Source of the DNA: a virus
IMG/VR virus record: IMGVR_UViG_3300010397_000007
Span: 5,042 to 69,041 of that record
DNA: 64,000 bases
Strand: one strand, 5' to 3'
The stretch's first letter is position 1; each line of letters opens with the position of its first letter. Positions 4,173-60,062 of the stretch are shown in pieces. Both the position numbers and the translations under genes were made by a program. The notes under the pieces are model-generated. The model made no database searches. It saw nothing but the letters and a program-made list of their open reading frames with translations, and was not told where the DNA came from.

Positions 4173-5297
4173 GTGCAAGGCCCAATCGCGCAAGCCCTCT
4201 CGGCTAGACTGGGCCAACCCTCTCAGCATCCCCTCGTCTCTCAGGGATTCAGCCCTAACATCGTTGAACCCTTTGGGAATAATAGCCTCGGCATAATGAT
4301 CGTCGGCGAAGCCCCAGGGGAACAGGAAGACGATAGCGGCCAACCTTTTGCCCCGTGGGCTCCAGCCGGCTCCGTCCTCGCTGCCGCAATCCGTAGAGCT
4401 GGTTGCCGTCGTGAGCAATTCGTAATCACCAACGTCGTCCCTGCTAGGCCTCCGAAGAACTGGCTAGAAGGCGCTCCTTGGGAGGCGGAGGCGATTAGCT
4501 GGGGCCTTGAGCATCTTGACGAGGCTGTGAGGGTGTATAAGCCTCGCGCCATAGTGGCGCTAGGTAGCATTGCGAGCCGGGTAACGACGGGATTAAGCGG
4601 CAGTAAGTTAGGCGTATCCCATCTCAGCGGCTACGCCATTCCATCCCCTCGATATAGCATCCCCGTCATCCCCTGCTTCCATCCATCCTTCCTCCGTCGT
4701 GGCGCGATGGCTCTGCTTGGAGTCATGGTTAATGCTCTAAGGAAAGCGAAGAAGGTCGCGGCGGGGCAGATTATATGCGTAGAGCCCCCGGTGGATAGCC
4801 CTCCTGAAGGCTACATCTTGCATCCTGACCCCAGCGTTGCTGAGTCATTTTTGCGTGACGCCAAAGAAGCAAAATATATTTCCTTCGATATTGAGACCCC
4901 TTATTCGACAGATGAGGAGAGCGCGGAAGAAGTAGAAGAAGAACATCGCATAAAGTCGATTCAGTTCTCTTTGGCGCAAAGCAGTGGAATATTTATGCCT
5001 TGGCGTGACGATTTCATTCCCATTGCGAAAGAAATCTTGGCATTACCGAGACCGAAACTTGGATGGAATATTTGGCATTTTGACAACCCAGTCCTTTATG
5101 AGCACAGTTGCAAAATCGCTGGCGAACAACACGACTTGATTTGGGCTTGGCATCACTTACAGCCCGATTTGCCGAGAGGGTTGCAGTTTGCTGCCGGCCA
5201 GTTGGGTTGGCCGTATCCATGGAAGCATCTTAGCGGCTCCGATCAGGAATTTTACGGAATTGTGGACGTGGAGGTACTCCAATGGATGGTTGCTTAA
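4173..5297 (+). CDS. DNA polymerase A N-terminal half: family-4 uracil-DNA-glycosylase-like domain plus 3'-5' exonuclease (SPO1-type architecture)
   Basis: IVGEAPG, ITNVV..RPP.N, IVALG, HPSF (UDG-F4); ExoI FDIET, ExoII GWNIWHFD, ExoIII YGIVD. Confidence 0.85.
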   Translation: MQGPIAQALSARLGQPSQHPLVSQGFSPNIVEPFGNNSLGIMIVGEAPGEQEDDSGQPFAPWAPAGSVLAAAIRRAGCRREQFVITNVVPARPPKNWLEGAPWEAEAISWGLEHLDEAVRVYKPRAIVALGSIASRVTTGLSGSKLGVSHLSGYAIPSPRYSIPVIPCFHPSFLRRGAMALLGVMVNALRKAKKVAAGQIICVEPPVDSPPEGYILHPDPSVAESFLRDAKEAKYISFDIETPYSTDEESAEEVEEEHRIKSIQFSLAQSSGIFMPWRDDFIPIAKEILALPRPKLGWNIWHFDNPVLYEHSCKIAGEQHDLIWAWHHLQPDLPRGLQFAAGQLGWPYPWKHLSGSDQEFYGIVDVEVLQWMVA

Positions 5298-5752
5298 TAC
5301 CTCTTGGCCGAAAAGGTTTTGCAATTGTTGATTCAGAAGATTACGAACGTGCTATGCAATACAGTTGGGTTATGGTTCCAAAACGTCGTCGCCTATACGC
5401 AAGAAGAGAATGGCGCATTGGAAATAGGCTGCGCCGTTACGAGTATCTACATAGTTTTATTATGCGTTCACGCGAGCAAATAGATCACCGAAATCTTGAC
5501 GGACTTGATTGTAGAAAAGCTAACCTGCGTTTTGCGACCGCGCAACAAAATGCGGCCAATAAGGAGCGGCGTCCCGGAGGTTCCAGTAAATACAAGGGAG
5601 TGTATTGGTCAAAGTCAATAAACCGTTGGGTTGCGCGACTAAGAACTAAGCACCTCTGTTCATCTACAAACGAAGAAGATGCGGCGAGAGCATACGACGA
5701 GGCAGCCCTAAAAATGTATGGGGAGTTTGCGAGGACAAATGGGTTTGTTTGA
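5282..5752 (+). CDS. HNH-AP2 homing endonuclease
   Basis: LHSFIM..IDHRNLDGLDCRKANLR (HNH); SKYKGVYW...AARAYD.AA (AP2). Confidence 0.9.
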   Translation: MDGCLIPLGRKGFAIVDSEDYERAMQYSWVMVPKRRRLYARREWRIGNRLRRYEYLHSFIMRSREQIDHRNLDGLDCRKANLRFATAQQNAANKERRPGGSSKYKGVYWSKSINRWVARLRTKHLCSSTNEEDAARAYDEAALKMYGEFARTNGFV

Positions 5753-7187
5753 GCGAATGCAAAAGGCCAACATTTATAGGGGCTATTTGCAACATGTGGT
5801 TAAATTAAATCCTGTGTTAGAGCGGGTTTCTGCTAGAGGCATGCCTGTAAATCAGGAAGGTTTTGATTCTGTTGTCGCCCGTCTCCGTGGTGATTACATG
5901 GCGGAGAAGGAGAAGATGCAAAGCCTCGTGCCTGACGAGATTAAAGCAAAGAAGGTTTACAAGAAGACCCCAAAGGCAAGGCTCGAAGAGTGTACACAAG
6001 TTGACGGAGTTTGGGTACGTACTCTACCTTGGACTCCTTCGAACAAGGGCCTCTGCGCTTACATTCGCCACCGTGGCCTCAAGGTTCCAAAGAACTTGAA
6101 GACCGAGAAGGACACGACGGCGGCGATCGAGATTGCCCGTCTCTCGCGAAAGACGAAGGATCCACTCTATGGAGCCGTGATTCAATACCGTAAGGCTCAA
6201 ACCGTCCTAACCAACCATGTAAAGAATTGGAAACCTGGGCCTGACCAACGAGTTCATACATCTTTCTATTTCGACCCTGCTACAGGCCAACTATCCTCTC
6301 GCCGTCCGAACGTTCAAAACGCCCCAAAGCACGACGATCCCGAGTTCGGAGGCTACGCCAAAGTTTTCCGTTCCATGATTAAGGCTCGTGAGGGGCATAC
6401 GATTCTTGAGTTCGACTTCAAGTCCTTCCACGCTCAGACTCTCGCTTTCGAGAGTGAAGACAAGGACTACCTCCGTCTCGCCAAGCTTGACATCCATTCC
6501 TTCCTCGCATCTCATCTCGTCCACGACCCGAAGGCCGGAGGCTGTCTCGCTTGGTCGGATGATGAGCTTCGAGAGTACCTAGCTTGGATCAAGAAGAATC
6601 ACAAGTTCGTCCGTGACTATAAGGCAAAGCGAGCCATTCTTGGCTACGGCTTTGGCATGGGCTATCGCAAGCTCTACGACATGAATCGTGAGTCCTTCGA
6701 CGGGCAGAAGGACGCCAAGAATACCCTCGACATGCTTGACTCTGTCTTTCCCGTGACGAAAAAATGGCGGGAGACGATACGGCATAAGGCTAACGATCAA
6801 GGTTACCTGATCTCCCGTCACGGGTACATTCGTTACTTCTGGGAAGTCTTCAGAGAGAGGAACGATGGCTGGACGCCAGGAGATGACAGCGAGGCCGCTG
6901 TAGCGTTCCTGCCGGCGAATGACGCCTTCGGGGAGATTAAGGATCGAATGCTTACGATCGCAGAGCGGGGACTCGACGAACGCTATGGCCTCATCAATAA
7001 CGTCCACGACTCCCTTTTGTTCGAATGCCCCGACCCTTTAGTCGAGGAGGCGGTTGGCACAATCAAGCCCCTCATGGAGAGCCGCTCGCAAGTCCTTATT
7101 TCTCCTAAGGTTGCACCGCTGGGTTTAAGCGTTGAAGTAGATGTCCAAGCAGGCCGTGACTGGGCCAGCCTGCGGGGAGTCGCGTAA
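5739..7187 (+). CDS. DNA polymerase A polymerase domain (C-terminal half, atypical motifs)
   Basis: TGQLSS..PNVQN, motif A DFKSFH, DIH, motif B KRAILGYGFGMG, motif C VHDS. ATG 5739 has a GAGGA RBS. Confidence 0.88.
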   Translation: MGLFERMQKANIYRGYLQHVVKLNPVLERVSARGMPVNQEGFDSVVARLRGDYMAEKEKMQSLVPDEIKAKKVYKKTPKARLEECTQVDGVWVRTLPWTPSNKGLCAYIRHRGLKVPKNLKTEKDTTAAIEIARLSRKTKDPLYGAVIQYRKAQTVLTNHVKNWKPGPDQRVHTSFYFDPATGQLSSRRPNVQNAPKHDDPEFGGYAKVFRSMIKAREGHTILEFDFKSFHAQTLAFESEDKDYLRLAKLDIHSFLASHLVHDPKAGGCLAWSDDELREYLAWIKKNHKFVRDYKAKRAILGYGFGMGYRKLYDMNRESFDGQKDAKNTLDMLDSVFPVTKKWRETIRHKANDQGYLISRHGYIRYFWEVFRERNDGWTPGDDSEAAVAFLPANDAFGEIKDRMLTIAERGLDERYGLINNVHDSLLFECPDPLVEEAVGTIKPLMESRSQVLISPKVAPLGLSVEVDVQAGRDWASLRGVA

Positions 7188-49241: not shown

Positions 49242-49622
49242 TTATCTTGACTTTTTAATCACCTTCTCCGCCTCGTCCATCCAGTCAGCACACTCTTTGA
49301 GGGCCTTCCTTCTCCCCTTAGGGCCAGGATCAAACTGCGCGATACTTTGCTGCCAACGATCCTTCTCATCCTCGCCCCTCCTCGTAGCCCAAGCCTCTGC
49401 TGTGTATACTAGCGTCCCCTTCGAATCGCCCCCTCGCACACTGAACATAACCAGCTCCACGCTGCAACCAAACTTCTCAACCTCCGGAGGAAACGTCGCG
49501 AACCGTCCTTCTCCTGCGTAAACGGGCAGAACGGCTAGAGATGAGAGGAAAAATGCGGTCAAAATGAACTTCTTGAGCATAGTGATTGGGGGCCGGAACA
49601 TAAGAAATCTCCCTACTTCCAC
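49242..49622 (-). CDS. hypothetical exported protein (start possibly MLKKF)
   Basis: Signal-peptide-like segment. Confidence 0.55.
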   Translation of the reverse strand: MEVGRFLMFRPPITMLKKFILTAFFLSSLAVLPVYAGEGRFATFPPEVEKFGCSVELVMFSVRGGDSKGTLVYTAEAWATRRGEDEKDRWQQSIAQFDPGPKGRRKALKECADWMDEAEKVIKKSR

Positions 49623-50262
49623 ATCTTACGCCTACTCGACGATGAATGTGACGCTAGCGTGACGCTAAATTGTTGATCTTATCGATCACTCTCAAGCCCC
49701 TGTGGGACGACTAAATTGGTCGTATATCGGGAAATGGCCTTCGTGTTTCTACGTTAATTCCAATTTCCCCTGGCGGGGTAGAGGGAACTTCGCGTGGAAA
49801 ACGACCGGGGGCCTATCCTGCCCCTCCCCTACTATCGAAAAGCGAAGGCGCGGCGAAGGATGCAAGGCCGGCGGCGGGCGGCGGCGGGGCGCACCGGCGG
49901 GGCTCCGAGTGGGCGGCCATTACCCTCAGACTTTCCCAAGCTTCTCATAGTCCAATAGAATCATAGCTTTACAGGCGAGTAACTTAGGTTGCGTACCTAA
50001 GGTACCGGGGAAACCGGCTCGATTCCGGCTCGATTCCAGCCCGATTAAACGTGGGGAATTATCGTGGGGAATTTTGAGGTGCTATGCGACAATTACCGCA
50101 GGTTAACAGTGTTAAGTGAGGCGACGTTCCATTAGCATCTCTAATCATTTTTCACTAATGTATGAATGAAATTAATGTCTACTAAATTGGTAGACATTCT
50201 TCTGGGCAGAGATGTAGTGCAATTCGAGTGCCATCTATTTTTCGTTAGCTTGACGTTTTAAC

Positions 50263-50291
50263 TTGACGTCTAGTCAACGACTAATTAACGT
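50263..50291 (+). promoter_or_regulatory. early sigma70-like promoter
   Basis: TTGACG-17 nt-TAACGT upstream of the DUF932 gene. Confidence 0.6.
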
Positions 50292-50344
50292 AGGTGCAAG
50301 ACCAGACCGAACTAAACGCGGCTGGCAAAAGGAGAATTAAACAA

Positions 50345-51211
50345 ATGTCATATCTACACGATTTCACAGTAGGCGCAAGAGCTAACAGGATTCAGACTCC
50401 CCTTACCCTTGACATGGTTCGCCAGTATGCACCCTCTGCTTTCGCCACTCACGCTCACGAATCGAGATCTGATCGTTACACCTACATTCCAACGATCAAC
50501 GTTATTGAGGGGATGATTAAGGCGGGTTTTCAACCCTTCTCAGCGTCTCAGTCAAGGTCACGCATTGAGGGGAAAGCAGAGTTTACCAAGCATATGATCC
50601 GCTTTCGCCATATGGACTTGACCTCTCCAATGGTAGTTGGGGACATTATTCCCGAAGTTGTGCTCGTTAACTCTCACGATGGCACGAGCGCTTACAAGCT
50701 CATTGCTGGCATGTTCCGCCTAGTCTGTTCGAACGGTCTCATGGTGGCGGACTCAACGACGGCGAGCGTCTCAGTCATGCACAAGGGGAACATTGTGGCG
50801 GATGTCATTGACGCGTCGAATGGGATCATTACTAGCTCACAGAAAGCTTTGAATGCCGCTAGCGCGTGGTCTAATCTGCAACTGACAGACGGTGAGCAGA
50901 GTGCTTTTGCTGAGGCTGCTCATACGGTGAGGTTTGCTGATGCTGAAGGGAAAGTTACGACGCCAATCACTGCGGCTCAATTGCTTCGTCCACGGCGCTC
51001 TGATGATAATGGGGCTGATCTTTGGAAAACTTTTAATCGCGTGCAAGAGAATGTTATTAAAGGCGGATTGCATGGTATACAACGTGATGCCAATGGCCGC
51101 CGGTTACGCGCTGTCAGCACAAGGCAGGTTAAGGGAATCGATCAGGATGTGAAATTGAATCGCGCCCTGTGGACTCTGGCGGAGCGTATGGCAGAGCTTA
51201 AGGCAGCGTAA
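50345..51211 (+). CDS. DUF932/DUF945-family protein (start MSYLH)
   Basis: HESRSDRY.YIPT, KHMIRFR, NSHDGTSAY.L.AG.FRLVC.NG, RR.DD...DLW..FNRVQEN, LNRALW; AGGAG RBS. Confidence 0.9.
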   Translation: MSYLHDFTVGARANRIQTPLTLDMVRQYAPSAFATHAHESRSDRYTYIPTINVIEGMIKAGFQPFSASQSRSRIEGKAEFTKHMIRFRHMDLTSPMVVGDIIPEVVLVNSHDGTSAYKLIAGMFRLVCSNGLMVADSTTASVSVMHKGNIVADVIDASNGIITSSQKALNAASAWSNLQLTDGEQSAFAEAAHTVRFADAEGKVTTPITAAQLLRPRRSDDNGADLWKTFNRVQENVIKGGLHGIQRDANGRRLRAVSTRQVKGIDQDVKLNRALWTLAERMAELKAA

Positions 51212-51212
51212 A

Positions 51213-51268
51213 AGTCGAAACGTGGCCTAATTGCCACGTCTCAGCGTTAGGCGCTGACTGATGAGACT
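51213..51268 (+). ncRNA. type II hammerhead ribozyme 1 (predicted cleavage after GUC at 51240)
   Basis: AGTC-GAAA-CGTGGC ctaatt GCCACG-TC-TCAGCG ttagg CGCTGA-CTGATGA-GACT; full catalytic core and three stems. Confidence 0.9.
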
Positions 51269-51284
51269 AAAGGGAGGTTTTCTG

Positions 51285-51536
51285 ATGACTAACTTTCAAA
51301 AGTTCTGCACAAGCTGTATCGATTGTGGGGGCTCGACGTCTAAGAGTTTCGCTCGGAGTAATGGCGGAAAGTGCAAGACTTGCGTTACGGGTGTTGAGCA
51401 ACCGAAGCGCGGGCCAAAGTGTCCGCAGTGTGGGGCTCCAATCTCTGCTTACAAAGCAGCACACGGTTACGTGTGTGAGGGTTGCTTTCGTGACAATGAT
51501 CCTGTTGGCTATGCCAATGAGCTTAGGGGATTCTAA
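51285..51536 (+). CDS. small multi-Zn-ribbon protein (start MTNFQ)
   Basis: GGAGG RBS; four CxxC pairs. Confidence 0.75.
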   Translation: MTNFQKFCTSCIDCGGSTSKSFARSNGGKCKTCVTGVEQPKRGPKCPQCGAPISAYKAAHGYVCEGCFRDNDPVGYANELRGF

Positions 51537-51590
51537 AGTCGAAACTCGGAGCAATCCGAGTCCTAGCATTACGTGCTAGCTGATGAGACT
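51537..51590 (+). ncRNA. type II hammerhead ribozyme 2 (predicted cleavage after GUC at 51562)
   Basis: AGTC-GAAA-CTCGGA gcaa TCCGAG-TC-CTAGCA ttacg TGCTAG-CTGATGA-GACT; stems covary relative to copy 1. Confidence 0.9.
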
Positions 51591-51637
51591 AGATCTCCTA
51601 GATCATTTGAGAGACAATTTGAAAATGGAGTGCCAAT

Positions 51638-51757
51638 ATGCGCAAGATTGCAAAAGATGTCGCAAAGGATGAGCTTGATTCGCTCAAAGACCAATTGCAC
51701 GCACTAGGATTCTCAAAACGTGCGATTAGTGCCGCGTTTAGGGAGGTGCAACTGTGA
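51638..51757 (+). CDS. 39-aa hypothetical protein
   Basis: GGAG RBS; MRKIAKDVAKDELDSLKDQLHALGFSKRAI... Confidence 0.5.
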   Translation: MRKIAKDVAKDELDSLKDQLHALGFSKRAISAAFREVQL

Positions 51758-52005
51758 TGACACTAAACGGTAATCGATACAGTGCCAAGGAGGGTAGGTT
51801 CGGGACTGTGCTTATTCTCCGTAAAAGTGACATGGCCACCGTATTCCTGCAAGGTGACGATGCTATCGAGTTTTTAGACAATCACAAGATACTTGACGCA
51901 ATGGAGTATCCTTGCGGCCCATTTAAGACTTTGGCCGAACATGTGGACGCTTGCCTTGATCAGTATGACGTTGTAATGCAGAACGGAATCGGAGGTGCAC
52001 TCTAA
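51754..52005 (+). CDS. early hypothetical protein
   Basis: GGAGG RBS; VFLQGDDA motif. Confidence 0.7.
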   Translation: MMTLNGNRYSAKEGRFGTVLILRKSDMATVFLQGDDAIEFLDNHKILDAMEYPCGPFKTLAEHVDACLDQYDVVMQNGIGGAL

Positions 52006-52286
52006 TGCAAGCCTATAGCAACCCAAAAAGAAAAGATGATCCTTACGCTTTACCCGACTTGGAAATTTTCTACCACGAACATGCTAAACGTGAACGTTGC
52101 ATGTTGAATGCTGGCCATAAGGCGGAACTTTATGGCGAATGCATTCTTGACGATGAGGGAGATTGCTTAGGTACAGGATGGTACTGGCAATCTTGCTTTC
52201 CAGGTTGCTTGCCTGATAGTGAACCAATGGGCCCGTACTTAACTGAGAAGGATGCGCTAATTGCTACGGCAGCCTATATCTTGTAA
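52005..52286 (+). CDS. early hypothetical protein
   Basis: GWYWQSCFPGCLPDSEPMGP motif recurrent in phage early genes. Confidence 0.75.
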   Translation: MQAYSNPKRKDDPYALPDLEIFYHEHAKRERCMLNAGHKAELYGECILDDEGDCLGTGWYWQSCFPGCLPDSEPMGPYLTEKDALIATAAYIL

Positions 52287-52400
52287 TCGCCGTCTCGGAA
52301 TGTCGAACAAGGCAGCCAAAGAAGCAAGTACGGTGTTTGTACCGTTCAAAGCAGAGTAAAAACCAAATGTACAGATGTGAATAAAAAAGGAGAAAACTTT

Positions 52401-52700
52401 ATGTTTTACAACGTGATTCGTTGGCCAAATGCACAAGGGGAATGGTGGTTGGTCGCTGAGACGGGCAAAGATGGCAGCTACACGCCATTGCTTGAAATCA
52501 AAGGCACCACGGGCAAATGTACAGAGCCTACTTATCCTAATCAACTCTGGCAAGCAGCCAAGCTGTTAGTTGATAAAGGGATTGAAGCTGTTAACAATCC
52601 ACACGCCATGACCGGCGAAATATGCGGATGCAACGATTGCTTTTGCTGCGCAGCGAATAAAGTTTACCAAGCTGCCAAGTCTGTCGAGGTGAGCGCATGA
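52401..52700 (+). CDS. early hypothetical protein (start MFYNV)
   Basis: AAGGAG RBS; CGCNDCFCC. Confidence 0.7.
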   Translation: MFYNVIRWPNAQGEWWLVAETGKDGSYTPLLEIKGTTGKCTEPTYPNQLWQAAKLLVDKGIEAVNNPHAMTGEICGCNDCFCCAANKVYQAAKSVEVSA

Positions 52701-53059
52701 GGCCACAATTTGACGAACGTGACACACAAATACTTGCAGAAAGGGAATCAGCATTTAATCAACATCATGGCCCTAGAGTGGGAGATTTCCTTCGTACGCA
52801 AGACGGTCTATTACGTTTTACCCATGACTGGGATGATTCACTCCAAACCACATGCAAGCAGTTCGGGAACGGTTCGTTCTATCTCGGTAAGGGATATGCG
52901 TCCTATAGCGGAGCACTTGACAGTGCAATCCTCAAGACTAAATTGCGTGACACTGGCATGACTGAACTAGGTGCATTTTGGTTCTTTCACCATGACTATT
53001 GCACAGCGCATAACGGGGTAGAGTGCAAATTTCCCTGTCGCGTTTATGAGATCGCATAA
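52697..53059 (+). CDS. hypothetical protein of mobile-element leading-region type
   Basis: GPRVGDF, RFTHDW, GSFYL, SGALD, FWFFHH, CRVY. Confidence 0.75.
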   Translation: MRPQFDERDTQILAERESAFNQHHGPRVGDFLRTQDGLLRFTHDWDDSLQTTCKQFGNGSFYLGKGYASYSGALDSAILKTKLRDTGMTELGAFWFFHHDYCTAHNGVECKFPCRVYEIA

Positions 53060-53369
53060 CAAACCCTAATACACGTTAACGCCCTAGCGTCTTAGACGCG
53101 TGAACGTGGCAAGGGACACATTTTGGACCCGAGGGGCTAGAATCGCCTCCTGGCGCAATTAAACGCTATCCTGGCGAGGGTCTTTGCCTATTGCCATGGC
53201 CGAAGGGGTTTGACAGGCTAATTTGACGTTTAAGCAATCAACAGCGGCTCTGCTAGTTTACGTTTTGACGCTTTTGCATACCGTAGGTATACATTTAGGA
53301 GACCTTTTTTATGAGATTTAACTTGACAACGGAACGAATGGGCGATATTTCTTATGTCGCCTTGAATGT

Positions 53370-53804
53370 ATGGGCAATTTTGGCGCTGCTTTTAGTCGCC
53401 TACGTGCCGAAATGACATCCACCATGAGTAAACGCGAGCTTGACGTTCTTGAGGCGATCGGACAGGGAAGATCGAATGTTCAGATTGCTGAAGAGTTAAA
53501 CATGACTATTGACACAGTCAACAAGCATATCAAGAGTCTCAAGGCAAAGACAGGGCGAAGGACGTTGATTGCCCTTGCTAATCATGTCAGGGGGGAGGAG
53601 TTTGAGCCGGCGCATCCTGCCCTCAGCCCTCGTGAGCAATGGATCGCCGCCCTCATAGTGGCTGATGGAACGAATAAGGAGATTGCGGAGGCTTCGAACA
53701 TTAGCCCACAGACGGTTAAGAATCATCTGACCAATATGTTTAACAAGTTAGGGGTGTGGTCAAGGTTGGAGCTGGTGACGAGGTTGAGAACAACCAATAA
53801 TTAA
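53370..53804 (+). CDS. tandem double LuxR-type HTH regulator (start possibly MSKRE at 53424)
   Basis: SKRELDVL..IGQG.SN.QIA.EL....TV..H and LSPRE...G.NKEIA...IS.QTVKNHL..MF.KLGV.SR.EL. Confidence 0.85.
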   Translation: MGNFGAAFSRLRAEMTSTMSKRELDVLEAIGQGRSNVQIAEELNMTIDTVNKHIKSLKAKTGRRTLIALANHVRGEEFEPAHPALSPREQWIAALIVADGTNKEIAEASNISPQTVKNHLTNMFNKLGVWSRLELVTRLRTTNN

Positions 53805-53818
53805 TCAAAGGAGACGCT

Positions 53819-53983
53819 ATGGACTACAAATACGCTACGTCAGAGTGTTACGATTTCATTGCACGTAAGAGGGGATGGGAGACGGCGAGGCAGCCTCTCT
53901 TTGAACGTTACCCTATTCTCTATGGAGTCATTGCGGCTCTGCTGGGATGGGCTCTCATCGTTGCACCGTTCTTATGGTCTTAA
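53819..53983 (+). CDS. 54-aa membrane protein
   Basis: AAGGAG RBS; C-terminal TM helix. Confidence 0.6.
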   Translation: MDYKYATSECYDFIARKRGWETARQPLFERYPILYGVIAALLGWALIVAPFLWS

Positions 53984-54228
53984 GGTTAGCAAAGTTCTTT
54001 GGAGCCTGCCGGCATAGACGCTACTCCTGGCCTCACGCTGTCGCGGTGACTGTGGAAGGCGAGGAGTTAAGGATTGCGTATGTTGCTTGCCTAAGCTGTG
54101 GGGCTGAGCTGCTTTACGATTTAGAGGAGATGAAGGTTGGAGGAACTCTTGACATCAGAGGAAGAAGTATATCTAAGAAAGCGCGGCTGGAAGCAAGCGG
54201 AGACGTTAAGCCCCTATCGCTGGTATGA
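53974..54228 (+). CDS. small Zn-binding protein of a type I associate with Acidobacteria
   Basis: FG.C.H..YSWP...YVACL.CG.EL.YD...MK. Confidence 0.65.
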   Translation: MVLRLAKFFGACRHRRYSWPHAVAVTVEGEELRIAYVACLSCGAELLYDLEEMKVGGTLDIRGRSISKKARLEASGDVKPLSLV

Positions 54229-54455
54229 CACTAAGTATCCCGGCGCTTACTACAGGCTGAGGGATGCCCTCGATGTTGCTAGGGGCTTGGAGAAGGAGCG
54301 CTCAGGCGGAGCGCATCAGACAGCGCCCCGACTGAAACCCAAGTTACGCTTGGGGAGGGCAGACTTGGGCTAAATGGACAATACGGACAGGGTAAGACCT
54401 TTGTCAAATCTCAGATGGTACTTATTGATTAAGGCGCATTGAATTAGGAGCAATC

Positions 54456-54659
54456 ATGGAAAGAATTAGCATCAAGGAGCACCTTGAAACCCTCGATCAC
54501 GAGAATGCTGAGGCTTATGCCCGTGGGCTCGCAGAGGGTGTGAAGCAGGAAGCTGCAAGGCAGAAGAAGGCGGACGATTGGATTTGTAGGGAGAGGGAGA
54601 AGGAGTTACTTCAGGCTCTAGAGATTGTGGTTAACGTAGCCTTGGAGAGGATCAGGTGA
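54456..54659 (+). CDS. hypothetical protein
   Basis: AGGAG RBS. Confidence 0.7.
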   Translation: MERISIKEHLETLDHENAEAYARGLAEGVKQEAARQKKADDWICREREKELLQALEIVVNVALERIR

Positions 54660-54883
54660 CCCCTCGCCTTATGGCTATCGCGCCCTTCGCTATGCTCATC
54701 CTCTTCGCTCTCGTTGGGCTAGCGATTAAGCCCCCTGTACCGCCGGCTCCGCTATTACGTAAGCCCACCATAATGTGGGTTGAACCTCTAGACATTGAAC
54801 CCTTCATCGCGCCTCCCAAGGTTAAATGTGGCTGGCGCACGCGCACGCAGCAGACACAGTATTGCCTAACACAATTTATTTAG
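54656..54883 (+). CDS. hypothetical membrane protein
   Basis: N-terminal TM helix, GTGA overlap. Confidence 0.55.
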   Translation: MTPRLMAIAPFAMLILFALVGLAIKPPVPPAPLLRKPTIMWVEPLDIEPFIAPPKVKCGWRTRTQQTQYCLTQFI

Positions 54884-55242
54884 GAGCCCCCTACCCATGA
54901 AAACGAAGATTGAAGAAGAATTAAAGCAACTTGATAAGCAAGGCGACGCGGCGGATATTAGACAGCTTACCCAACTGTCCATTGCGAAGGCCCTATGGAC
55001 GATCGCGTTACTACTAAGTGAATATTCTTTGCAGAGTTCGTAAAGTTAGGTAAAGAGCCCTAGCAGTTAAGTTGCTATTCCCCTAGCACTTTATTGCCAT
55101 TGTCCAACGGTCACAGATAACTATAAGGTAGCCCCCAACATGTCCAAGGCCCGCTCGTCTCGCTCAGGTTGTAAGTTGATTTATACCGAAGGATGTAAAT
55201 GTGGGAGCCTGAAGAGGTTCGGCTCCCGATGCCCTAAGTGCT

Positions 55243-55605
55243 CTAAGCCCGCTTCCTTGCCGGCGCGCGCCCCACATTCGGCGGCTCATAAGATACCGAT
55301 AGACACCAAGAATTCTCAGTCGGCTGGTTAGTCTTGTAAAGCTCGACGACGTAGTCTGACTCTAGATGGGCGTCAGCCAGGAGTGTCTTCATTTTGTCCC
55401 GCGCTATGCGCCCGACGTTCTTACGATTGATCCTCTTCGCATCCTCTGGCGTGAAGACAATCCAGACATCCTCTTGCGGCTTCATCGTCGAGCTAAAGAC
55501 TTTTGCTCGTAAGTTAAGCCACTCCTGATGCACGTCTAAAACGTCTTTCGACCGTCTCCCGGCCTGCTTGGGTCGGTCATCCTTACTGCCGAATCCGAAT
55601 TGCAT
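55243..55605 (-). CDS. hypothetical protein (possible DNA-binding regulator)
   Basis: Basic 120-aa ORF on the minus strand with a GGGGA RBS. Confidence 0.65.
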   Translation of the reverse strand: MQFGFGSKDDRPKQAGRRSKDVLDVHQEWLNLRAKVFSSTMKPQEDVWIVFTPEDAKRINRKNVGRIARDKMKTLLADAHLESDYVVELYKTNQPTENSWCLSVSYEPPNVGRAPARKRA

Positions 55606-58556: not shown

Positions 58557-58858
58557 GTATGTTCAGCAGTAGCCAAGTCGCCTCGATCCTTGGGATCAAA
58601 CTTTGGAAGTTGAATCGCCTCCTCTCTCATTACATGTTGAAATCATCTGGCAGCCTCGGGCAAGGCAGAGGTTCTCGACGAATATTCAACGAAGAGGATG
58701 TTCGACAGATAGCGATTGTAATGTTCCTTAATCGTGACGGTTTCACGCCGAAGCTGGTGAATAAAATGCAGCAGACTAGCGTTGAGGACTTGGTCGCACA
58801 GGCGGTAGAACTTTCTTACAAGCTAAACCTTTCAGCAATTGCCCCCGCCGAGAAATAA
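58547..58858 (+). CDS. MerR-like HTH protein, probable excisionase
   Basis: FSSSQVASILGI...GRGSRRIFNEEDV; directly upstream of the integrase; start uncertain. Confidence 0.65.
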   Translation: MSLGMFSSSQVASILGIKLWKLNRLLSHYMLKSSGSLGQGRGSRRIFNEEDVRQIAIVMFLNRDGFTPKLVNKMQQTSVEDLVAQAVELSYKLNLSAIAPAEK

Positions 58859-58931
58859 CATGGCATCCTTAGACCACTCTTCGATACAATTCCCTCTGGC
58901 CGTCGGATCATTAGGTGAAAGAAGGAACCTG

Positions 58932-60062
58932 ATGGCACGCAGACGTTATCAGAGAGGAACTTTGATTCAGGAGGGGAAGACGCCGACATGGAAGGCAAGG
59001 TATCTGGAGGACGTTGTCCTTGCCAATGGAACGCGGAAGCGAGTCCACAAGAAAGTTGTACTCGGTGGGCTCAAGGAGTATCCAACAAGACGCCTCGCGA
59101 TGCGAGCAATGGAGCAAGTCATTGCGGAGGTTAATAGCCTTAGCTATAAGCCAAAGCACCTCATCTCCTTCTCCTCCTTCGCTGACAAATGGGAAGCGAT
59201 GGTAATGCCTAATCACAAGCCCTCGACTCAAGCGGTGGAACGGGGACAGGTGAAGGCTTTGAAAGGATGGTTTGGAGAGATGGCGATTGGGGAAATTGAG
59301 ACGGAGATCTTGCAGCACTGGATTACATCTCTCCGCTTAAGCCCGAAGACGGTTAGGAACTTTGTGGCAACGCTACGCATGATGTGGAAGAGTGCGAGGG
59401 CTTGGGGCTACGTGAAGACTAATCCCTTCGAGGACTTGATCCTGCCGGCTCGCGGGCTAGCGAAGGCTCCTTCTCTCTCACCAGAGCAAGCGAGAGAGGT
59501 TATACGGAGGGCAGAGGAACCGTACAAGACGATGTTCTGGATTGTCGCTGAGACGGGGATGCGAGGTGGGGAAGTTTGTGGCCTGAGGGTGGAGGATATC
59601 GACATTGCCTCTCGCACCATTCATATCAGGCAGAGCGCTTGGAATGGCAAGGTGCAGACACCTAAGACCGCTAACGCTATCCGTCACTTCATCATCTCAG
59701 CTCAACTTGCTGCGCATATCTCCACTGGCGTCAGGCCGATCGCTGGCTTGATGTTCAGCGTCAACGGTCATGCGATGGATAACCATAACGTCGTGCAGAA
59801 GCATTTGAGACCTATCCTTCAGGACATGAAAGTGTATGAGCCGAGGATGGGGCTCCATAGCTTCCGGCATGGAAACTGTAGCGCCATGGATAGCTTGGGG
59901 ACGCCGGCTAAGGTTAGGCAAGAGAGGGTAGGCCACGCGGACTTTAAGACTACGATGGGCTACACGCACGCATTCTCCCAGGATCACCGCGAGGTTGCGG
60001 ATAAGCTTGGGACGATGTTTGATCCTGGCCATGACAGTAGTCTTGGCCTAGCGGGCGATTAG
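58932..60062 (+). CDS. int: tyrosine integrase (start MARRRYQRG)
   Basis: TGMRGGE, PKT, HSFRH, VGH and YTH catalytic residues; AAGGA RBS. Confidence 0.92.
   Translation: MARRRYQRGTLIQEGKTPTWKARYLEDVVLANGTRKRVHKKVVLGGLKEYPTRRLAMRAMEQVIAEVNSLSYKPKHLISFSSFADKWEAMVMPNHKPSTQAVERGQVKALKGWFGEMAIGEIETEILQHWITSLRLSPKTVRNFVATLRMMWKSARAWGYVKTNPFEDLILPARGLAKAPSLSPEQAREVIRRAEEPYKTMFWIVAETGMRGGEVCGLRVEDIDIASRTIHIRQSAWNGKVQTPKTANAIRHFIISAQLAAHISTGVRPIAGLMFSVNGHAMDNHNVVQKHLRPILQDMKVYEPRMGLHSFRHGNCSAMDSLGTPAKVRQERVGHADFKTTMGYTHAFSQDHREVADKLGTMFDPGHDSSLGLAGD

Follow-up and report, generated by a model that had tools for sequence, protein, structure and literature searches.

Clustered hammerhead ribozymes that flank single prophage genes have been described by Perreault et al. 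2011 (PMC3088659), and that paper proposes a role in mRNA processing, reports the expected cleavage products in vitro for three tandem arrangements and also raises the idea of a circular product. The purpose of the hundreds of hammerheads in phage genomes is called undefined in Weinberg et al. 2019 (PMC6765202). Retrozymes and viroid-like circles likewise contain two hammerheads of the same polarity a few hundred nucleotides apart, which release a unit with 5′-OH and cyclic phosphate ends whose joining rebuilds a hammerhead, as is predicted for the locus reported here; according to the sections covered of de la Pena et al. 2020 (PMC7761336) and Weinberg et al. 2019 (PMC6765202), these are type I or III hammerheads in repeated, non-coding units that are copied through RNA.

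Here, we analyzed a stretch of 64,000 nucleotides of a phage genome, referred to as the window, which contains two type II hammerheads, HH1 and HH2 (Table 1). In the covered text of Perreault et al. 2011 (PMC3088659), the prophage clusters show the same type II layout with coding-strand ribozymes bracketing individual, non-constant genes, and the same role is proposed, that is the conversion of long phage transcripts into single-gene mRNAs. The window phage differs from them in possessing two hammerheads only, and these lack the pseudoknot between loop I and the 3′ tail that belongs to the consensus in that text. The Rfam model RF02276 (Hammerhead_II), from a clan of phage and bacterial ribozymes, shares the core and the circular permutation with HH1 and HH2, but in its consensus stem I spans 9 bp and ends in a UGG loop, with which a 3′ AGCCA tail pairs, whereas loop I in the window comprises 3–5 nt and the tails are not complementary to it. 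In contrast to retrozymes, the ribozymes in the window are of type II and surround a protein-coding gene that is unique and belongs to a DNA phage; a repeat unit is absent. A previous reading of the locus made from the sequence only had called it retrozyme-like, a label that we drop since the cargo codes for protein and is not part of a repeated unit. HH1 and HH2 are a real and clean additional case of an already described arrangement, and the window locus itself is ordinary among gene-flanking phage hammerheads.

Table 1. Features of the hammerhead locus and its genomic surroundings
Feature	Position	Strand	Details
Window	bases 5042-69041 of the 69,041-bp record IMGVR_UViG_3300010397_000007		soil phage
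Structural genes	10236 to 49622	-	
Early/regulatory block	from near 49700	+	DUF932, zinc-ribbon gene, small orphan ORFs, two-HTH LuxR-type regulator, integrase
Upstream gene, DUF932-family protein, 305 aa	50294..51211	+	PF06067, E 1.6e-47; phrog_12094, E 4.8e-94
Last DUF932 codons, competitor strand	51195..51209	+	can pair with HH1 stem I 3′ strand and core (51251-51268)
Hammerhead 1 (HH1), type II	51213..51268	+	sequence, fold, scanner; R1 54.8 bits, E 6.9e-13
HH1 parts	51213-16; 51217-20; 51258-64; 51265-68	+	AGUC; GAAA; CUGAUGA; GACU
HH1 stem III hairpin	51220-51239		A15.1-U16.1 plus CGUGGC/GCCACG, loop CUAAUU
HH1 C17	51240		predicted cut after C51240
HH1 stem I hairpin	51241-51257		UCAGCG(U)/(G)CGCUGA
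Excised RNA, 322 nt, predicted	51241..51562	+	holds Shine-Dalgarno and whole 83-aa ORF
Shine-Dalgarno GGGAGG	51272..51277	+	7 nt ahead of ATG at 51285
83-aa protein, four CxxC motifs (double zinc ribbon), putative	51285..51536	+	ORF list
Hammerhead 2 (HH2), type II	51537..51590	+	sequence, fold, scanner; R1 52.5 bits, E 2.9e-12
HH2 parts	51537-40; 51541-44; 51580-86; 51587-90	+	AGUC; GAAA; CUGAUGA; GACU
HH2 stem III	51544-51561		CUCGGA/UCCGAG, loop GCAA
HH2 C17	51562		predicted cut after C51562
HH2 stem I	51563-51579		CUAGCA(U)/(G)UGCUAG
Downstream small ORFs, 39, 83, 93, 107, 120 aa	51638..53059	+	no family match (Pfam, PHROG)

The phage record of 69,041 bp carries direct terminal repeats at its ends and is complete by rating. 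Both hammerheads are located approximately 1 kb inside the + strand block, which runs on across the genome end, where a helicase, a DNA polymerase in split form and an exonuclease are encoded. A blastn search with 50294-52300 gave no match to a named phage. Scanning 49400-55400 for promoters and terminators returned the same counts as shuffled sequence, the promoter scan being no better than chance; no terminator-like site was found on the + strand from 51016 to the end of the scan at 55400, which is weak evidence for a single transcript. Three further features of the genome were recorded. A G+C-rich stretch of the GGC/GGCGG type lies at 49840-49910 between the divergent - strand structural and + strand early blocks. 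The DNA polymerase appears to be divided over two ORFs, 4173-5297 and 5718-7187 (each phrog_17), which are separated by an HNH endonuclease ORF at 5282-5752; this arrangement of the region 4173-7187 points to the insertion of a homing endonuclease or to an interruption of the intron/intein type. A tyrosine integrase is encoded at 58839-60062 (phrog_1, E 7e-56) in this record with direct terminal repeats, and the phage is possibly temperate.

Both hammerheads are built in the order 11.x-GAAA-hairpin III-C17-hairpin I-CUGAUGA-10.x, the type II permutation, with open stem II strands at the outer ends and loops capping stems III and I. The core consensus is complete in both (CUGAUGA, GAAA, the A15.1-U16.1 pair and C17 as H17), and stems II, III and I comprise 4, 7 and 7 bp with standard pairs throughout and none mispaired beside the core. 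Three helices around the core without a mispair next to it is also how a hammerhead is recognized in the covered text of Perreault et al. 2011 (PMC3088659). HH1 and HH2 have the same core but stems I and III that are unlike in sequence and yet wholly paired in each. When folded alone, the minimum free energy (MFE) structure is the three-way junction for HH1 (z -3.62, 0 of 200 shuffles equally stable) as well as for HH2 (z -3.26, 1 of 200). Only the ribozyme halves repeat between the two (32 nt at 78% and 11 nt at 100%). A likeness of 19 nt between the ORF ends (51194-51212 and 51519-51537, 74%) was considered as part of a longer repeat and rejected as coincidence, since these C-terminal codons are kept in homologues without hammerheads.

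The pseudoknot of loop I with the 3′ tail, which the consensus of Perreault 2011 and that of Rfam for type II require, was not seen by eye in either ribozyme. Loop I reads UUAGG and UUACG, respectively, and the tails AAAGGGAGG and AGAUCUCC contain no complement of at least 4 nt beyond stem II. Without this pseudoknot, the speed of cleavage at cellular Mg2+ is uncertain. Two further observations concern the surroundings of the ribozymes. A second CUGAUGA at 51282-51288, 24 nt past that of HH1, contains the zinc-ribbon start codon; the stems for a second hammerhead are absent, and its occurrence is probably due to chance. Stem II of HH2 can be extended by UCU/AGA and GGA/UCC pairs of 51528-51536 with 51591-51598, reaching into the last zinc-ribbon codons, while HH1 has no such extension, and this may be why HH2 is more stable in context than HH1.

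To search for hammerheads by structure we employed a scanner whose criteria are the core, U16.1 and H17 together with three stems, each 4 bp or longer. On both strands of the whole 69,041-bp genome it returned HH1 and HH2 and nothing further, and it found no match in 100 versions of the genome shuffled with preserved dinucleotides; hence, HH1 and HH2 are beyond chance. A covariance model (R1), for which 84 hammerheads from other phage contigs were aligned and the window was left out, yielded exactly two matches on the window at E<=10, again HH1 and HH2. That the locus holds two complete type II hammerheads with the same cores and different, fully paired stems I and III, as had been claimed from the sequence, is thus confirmed by the sequence itself, the folds and R1 at about 1e-12, and all coordinates given for the cuts after 51240 and 51562 and for a 322-nt RNA carrying the ribosome-binding site and the entire zinc-ribbon ORF proved right.

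The same reading had named Infernal with the Rfam hammerhead models as a check, and this check came out negative. Rfam cmscan reported no match at the gathering threshold, no hammerhead at E<=10 on 51100-51700 (601 bases) and no match at E<=1 across the window. RF02276 alone gave a single, unrelated match of 11.6 bits on the genome, which is no hammerhead, and its gathering score of 37 bits is reached by neither ribozyme. The model misses HH1 and HH2 because it expects a long loop I and the 3′ pseudoknot, which are absent here. In eight array loci (L026, L039, L046, L055, L089, L096, L109 and L117), RF02276 recovered 9 matches at gathering, compared to 46 hammerheads found by the scanner. The silence of Rfam is therefore a false negative caused by limited model sensitivity and no argument against the motifs.

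To place HH1 and HH2 in a wider family, IMG/VR was searched with a pattern that covers stem II and the core only (AGTCGAAA, 25-55 nt, CTGATGAGACT). The pattern occurs in at least 119 IMG/VR loci (L003-L121), in which same-strand arrays of 2 to 9 hammerheads are common. Among the matches listed, 124 of 132 fold as full hammerheads, compared to 11 of 2640 interior shuffles, and 182 hammerheads were collected in which stems I and III have 4 bp or more and stem II has 3 bp or more. These matches include 67 adjacent same-strand pairs with a median spacing of 466 nt, 47 of them at 218-620 nt, and the spacing of 322 nt in the window is typical of hammerhead arrays. Stem II comprises 4 bp in 130 of the 182 listed hammerheads; it reads AGUC/GACU in 130/182 and mostly xGUC/GACx in the rest, a preference to be read with the fact that this pattern served to select the loci. 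In the alignment of 84 rows underlying R1, which were picked by a scanner that itself requires pairing, 96.3% of the paired cells hold a pair, compared to 69.1% after shuffling and 26-42% with the partner column slid; both partners vary in 13 of 15 pairs, and the covariation score is 0.672 versus 0.158 in shuffled alignments.

These family data bear on whether HH1 and HH2 could be inactive look-alikes, motifs able to fold whose cleavage in cells is too slow to be of consequence. The missing pseudoknot or other recognized tertiary contact and the missing Rfam match are what one would expect of such motifs, as is the finding that HH1 is outcompeted in folds of long context (see below). On the other hand, a short loop I (<=5 nt) is present together with the conserved features in 113 of the 182 hammerheads among the matches listed, which suggests that the short-loop, pseudoknot-free type II form is a working subclass, and every core position in HH1 and HH2 equals the consensus. 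We hence regard inactivity as highly improbable.

The position of the hammerheads relative to the upstream gene is conspicuous at the locus and in the family. HH1 follows the DUF932 stop (TAA 51209-11) after 1 nt and HH2 the zinc-ribbon stop (TAA 51534-36) after 0 nt, in agreement with the distance of 0-1 nt noted in the sequence-only reading. Taking as upstream gene the longest ORF of at least 50 aa that ends nearby, 115 of the 182 hammerheads among the matches listed begin -3 to +2 nt from the end of its stop codon, while control positions 9-40 nt further upstream gave 0-6. In 65 of these listed family members the stop overlaps stem II (gaps of -2 and -1), including 38 in which the AG of a UAG stop opens stem II; the distance from the ribozyme to the next ORF start has a median of 25 nt among the matches listed. 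Abutment of the hammerhead start on a stop codon is a family rule. It is not stated in the text of Perreault 2011 as covered here, and our literature search on this placement in main texts returned nothing past Perreault 2011 and reviews.

Such a placement could couple cleavage to translation of the upstream gene. A ribosome terminating at the abutting stop would unfold the ribozyme, so that cleavage depends on upstream translation and the cut share reports on it, and at HH1 the ribosome would also remove a competing helix. The CAGCGU of the HH1 stem I 5′ strand recurs in the last DUF932 codons, and these can form a competitor fold whose computed stability exceeds that of HH1 by 4.6-4.7 kcal/mol. 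The predicted probability of HH1 stem II is 0.42 just after synthesis and decreases to <=0.02 as the flanks grow. Regulated cleavage has been raised for phage hammerheads in the covered text of Perreault et al. 2011 (PMC3088659), and the stop placement and stem II overlap described above would fit with it. Nonetheless, the adjacency to stops may reflect mere genome compaction, and HH2 has no competitor and is the MFE structure in context: in 500 nt, stem II is predicted with P 0.87 for HH2 and P 0.02 for HH1. The six-base repeat behind the competitor moreover lies within codons that are kept in hammerhead-less relatives. The competitor helix could be a translation-sensitive switch or chance, and we consider gating by translation an unlikely mode of action.

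We further compared the genes flanked by HH1 and HH2 with their relatives. The 83-aa zinc-ribbon protein has Pfam zinc-ribbon matches that are all sub-threshold and no PHROG, and its AlphaFold model (pLDDT 74) matched no PDB fold at E<=0.001. Its 13 homologues (63-81% identity), all unnamed or hypothetical-like, share the start at the same Met and have invariant Cys columns. None of 10 loci with zinc-ribbon relatives (L002, L122-L130; 43-83% identity) carries a hammerhead in an R1 search at E<=1, and the R1 search was likewise negative for five viral loci with DUF932 relatives (48-87% identity). At one of the former (L123), a promoter-like intergenic region, judged by eye, precedes the zinc-ribbon homologue. 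In the DUF932 relatives, likeness to the window on the DNA level ends at 51195-51210, just short of HH1, and ordinary hairpins come after the stop in its place. By sequence comparison, HH1 and HH2 are dispensable for the DUF932 and zinc-ribbon genes.

Pieces of both ribozymes were found elsewhere in X2, a DNA sequencing run of another study. A contig of 125 nt matches 51533-51626 with four differences, two of which (A51568U and U51574A) swap an A-U for a U-A pair in stem I of HH2 while the other two fall into loop I, and its upstream 31 nt are unlike the window; other short contigs of this run contain HH1-like pieces beside different flanking sequence. No joint across the excised segment occurred in the two public DNA runs analyzed, and no RNA run was listed among the public runs containing the phage. 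Since the hammerheads are absent in the relatives and the X2 contigs show other flanks and a compensatory change, HH1 and HH2 seem to be modular elements that are selected for pairing and came to this site recently.

It may be argued from these data that the hammerheads are selfish or neutral passengers, which spread among phage intergenic sites, or that they mark the joints of gene-cassette exchange on the DNA level, in neither case with a selected benefit for the phage on the RNA level. Their absence from all 15 examined loci with relatives, the end of DNA likeness right before HH1 and the changing flanks in X2 agree with this, and so do the varying flanked genes in Perreault et al. 2011 (PMC3088659), as far as covered. 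Intact cores and stems with compensatory changes argue for selection on RNA function instead, and the exact placement from stop to Shine-Dalgarno, on the coding strand only, is unexpected for a neutral insert. We therefore think that a passenger without RNA-level benefit is distinctly unlikely.

Taken together, HH1 and HH2 are probably active and cut the early transcript into single-gene RNAs, a reading that we favor on sequence grounds. Protein-free processing of the early + strand transcript had also been put forward as the minimal interpretation in the sequence-only reading and was proposed earlier for phage hammerheads by Perreault et al. 2011 (PMC3088659). In this model, HH1 and HH2 would fold during transcription and cut the polycistronic + strand RNA after their C17 residues, so that separate messages would arise for DUF932, for the zinc-ribbon gene and for the small genes downstream; the small ORFs of Table 1 would belong to the 3′ cleavage product of HH2.

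Hammerhead cleavage leaves 5′-OH and 2′,3′-cyclic phosphate ends. Because of the type II geometry, a hairpin would stand at the end of every product: each upstream product would close with hairpin III and one C bearing the 2′,3′-cyclic phosphate, and each downstream product would open with hairpin I and a 5′-OH. For the 322-nt RNA, the 5′ end would be flush with hairpin I of HH1 and the 3′ end would consist of hairpin III of HH2 plus C. The products should part fast because the 4-bp stem II alone joins them. Hairpin ends are known to protect bacterial mRNAs from decay. By extension from this knowledge, the hairpins, the 5′-OH and the cyclic phosphate may stabilize the products of HH1 and HH2, and we infer that the genes are transcribed as one RNA, that cleavage takes place in vivo and that the ends have this stabilizing effect. 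The outcome would be single-gene mRNAs whose stability and translation are independent of their neighbors. The argument from hairpin-ended products does not appear in the text of Perreault 2011 as covered here.

Comparable solutions are known from other systems. The early RNA of phage T7 contains RNase III sites, at which a host protein cuts at fixed points and produces hairpin-bearing ends and independent cistrons. RiboJ, an engineered ribozyme insulator based on a type III satellite hammerhead, cuts RNA with variable leaders. Cleavage at fixed points, hairpin-bearing ends and cistron independence are common to RiboJ and to what we propose for HH1 and HH2, and whereas the T7 sites depend on a host protein, HH1 and HH2 would be a protein-free counterpart.

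Finally, we considered whether the excised RNA might be joined into a circular mRNA. GACU 51265-68 would pair with AGUC 51537-40 to form a nicked chimeric hammerhead of HH1 stem I and HH2 stem III, and sealing by reverse cleavage or by host RtcB would give a translatable, exonuclease-resistant circle of 322 nt. The 5′-OH and cyclic phosphate ends are suitable for RtcB. The chimeric geometry described in the sequence-only reading holds up in prediction: the MFE structure of the excised RNA is exactly the nicked chimeric junction, and the predicted probability of the GACU:AGUC pairing is about 0.95 for the linear RNA and 0.48 for its circular form, with 5 of 100 interior shuffles reaching the linear value. 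We extended this end-pairing test to 37 of 42 non-redundant family segments of <=620 nt with 12 shuffles each, four of the 42 being left out as their cross pairing is not complementary. Among the matches listed, a probability of at least 0.3 was reached by 11 of the 37 segments and by 55 of 444 shuffles, but the effect is only marginal, with a rank-sum z of -1.98 and a Wilcoxon p of 0.96, the median real value is 0.02 and 23 of the 37 segments stay below 0.05.

The step from identical stems II to a circle, made in the sequence-only reading, is not supported by the family comparison. AGUC/GACU is the majority form as stated above, and the fourth stem II pair exists within a ribozyme in 107 of 134 cases, compared to only 37 of 67 between neighbors (30 of 44 where both natives pair; all among the matches listed). 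The identity of stem II is a family-wide trait and no sign of circle design. Moreover, a search of the phage for RtcB and RNA ligase found neither, no tertiary contact favoring ligation was seen, and closure would rebuild a ribozyme able to recut the circle. Circular or spliced products were sought by Perreault et al. 2011 (PMC3088659) and none was found (data not shown, according to the text covered); within main texts, we came across no later report of phage hammerhead circles beyond that paper and reviews. A circular mRNA is hence very unlikely from these model-based considerations. If it existed, it would be a natural circular, translatable mRNA with its own Shine-Dalgarno sequence in a DNA phage, and the constant GAC/GUC of stem II would exist to make any two neighbors compatible.

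Consisting of two ribozymes around a single small gene in a complete genome, the locus provides a clean minimal test case for the function of phage hammerheads. Surveys based on Rfam undercount such ribozymes, since the short-loop, pseudoknot-free type II form makes up most phage examples among the matches listed. The start of the ribozyme at the stop codon and the hairpin at both new ends lead to testable ideas on why phages use type II hammerheads.
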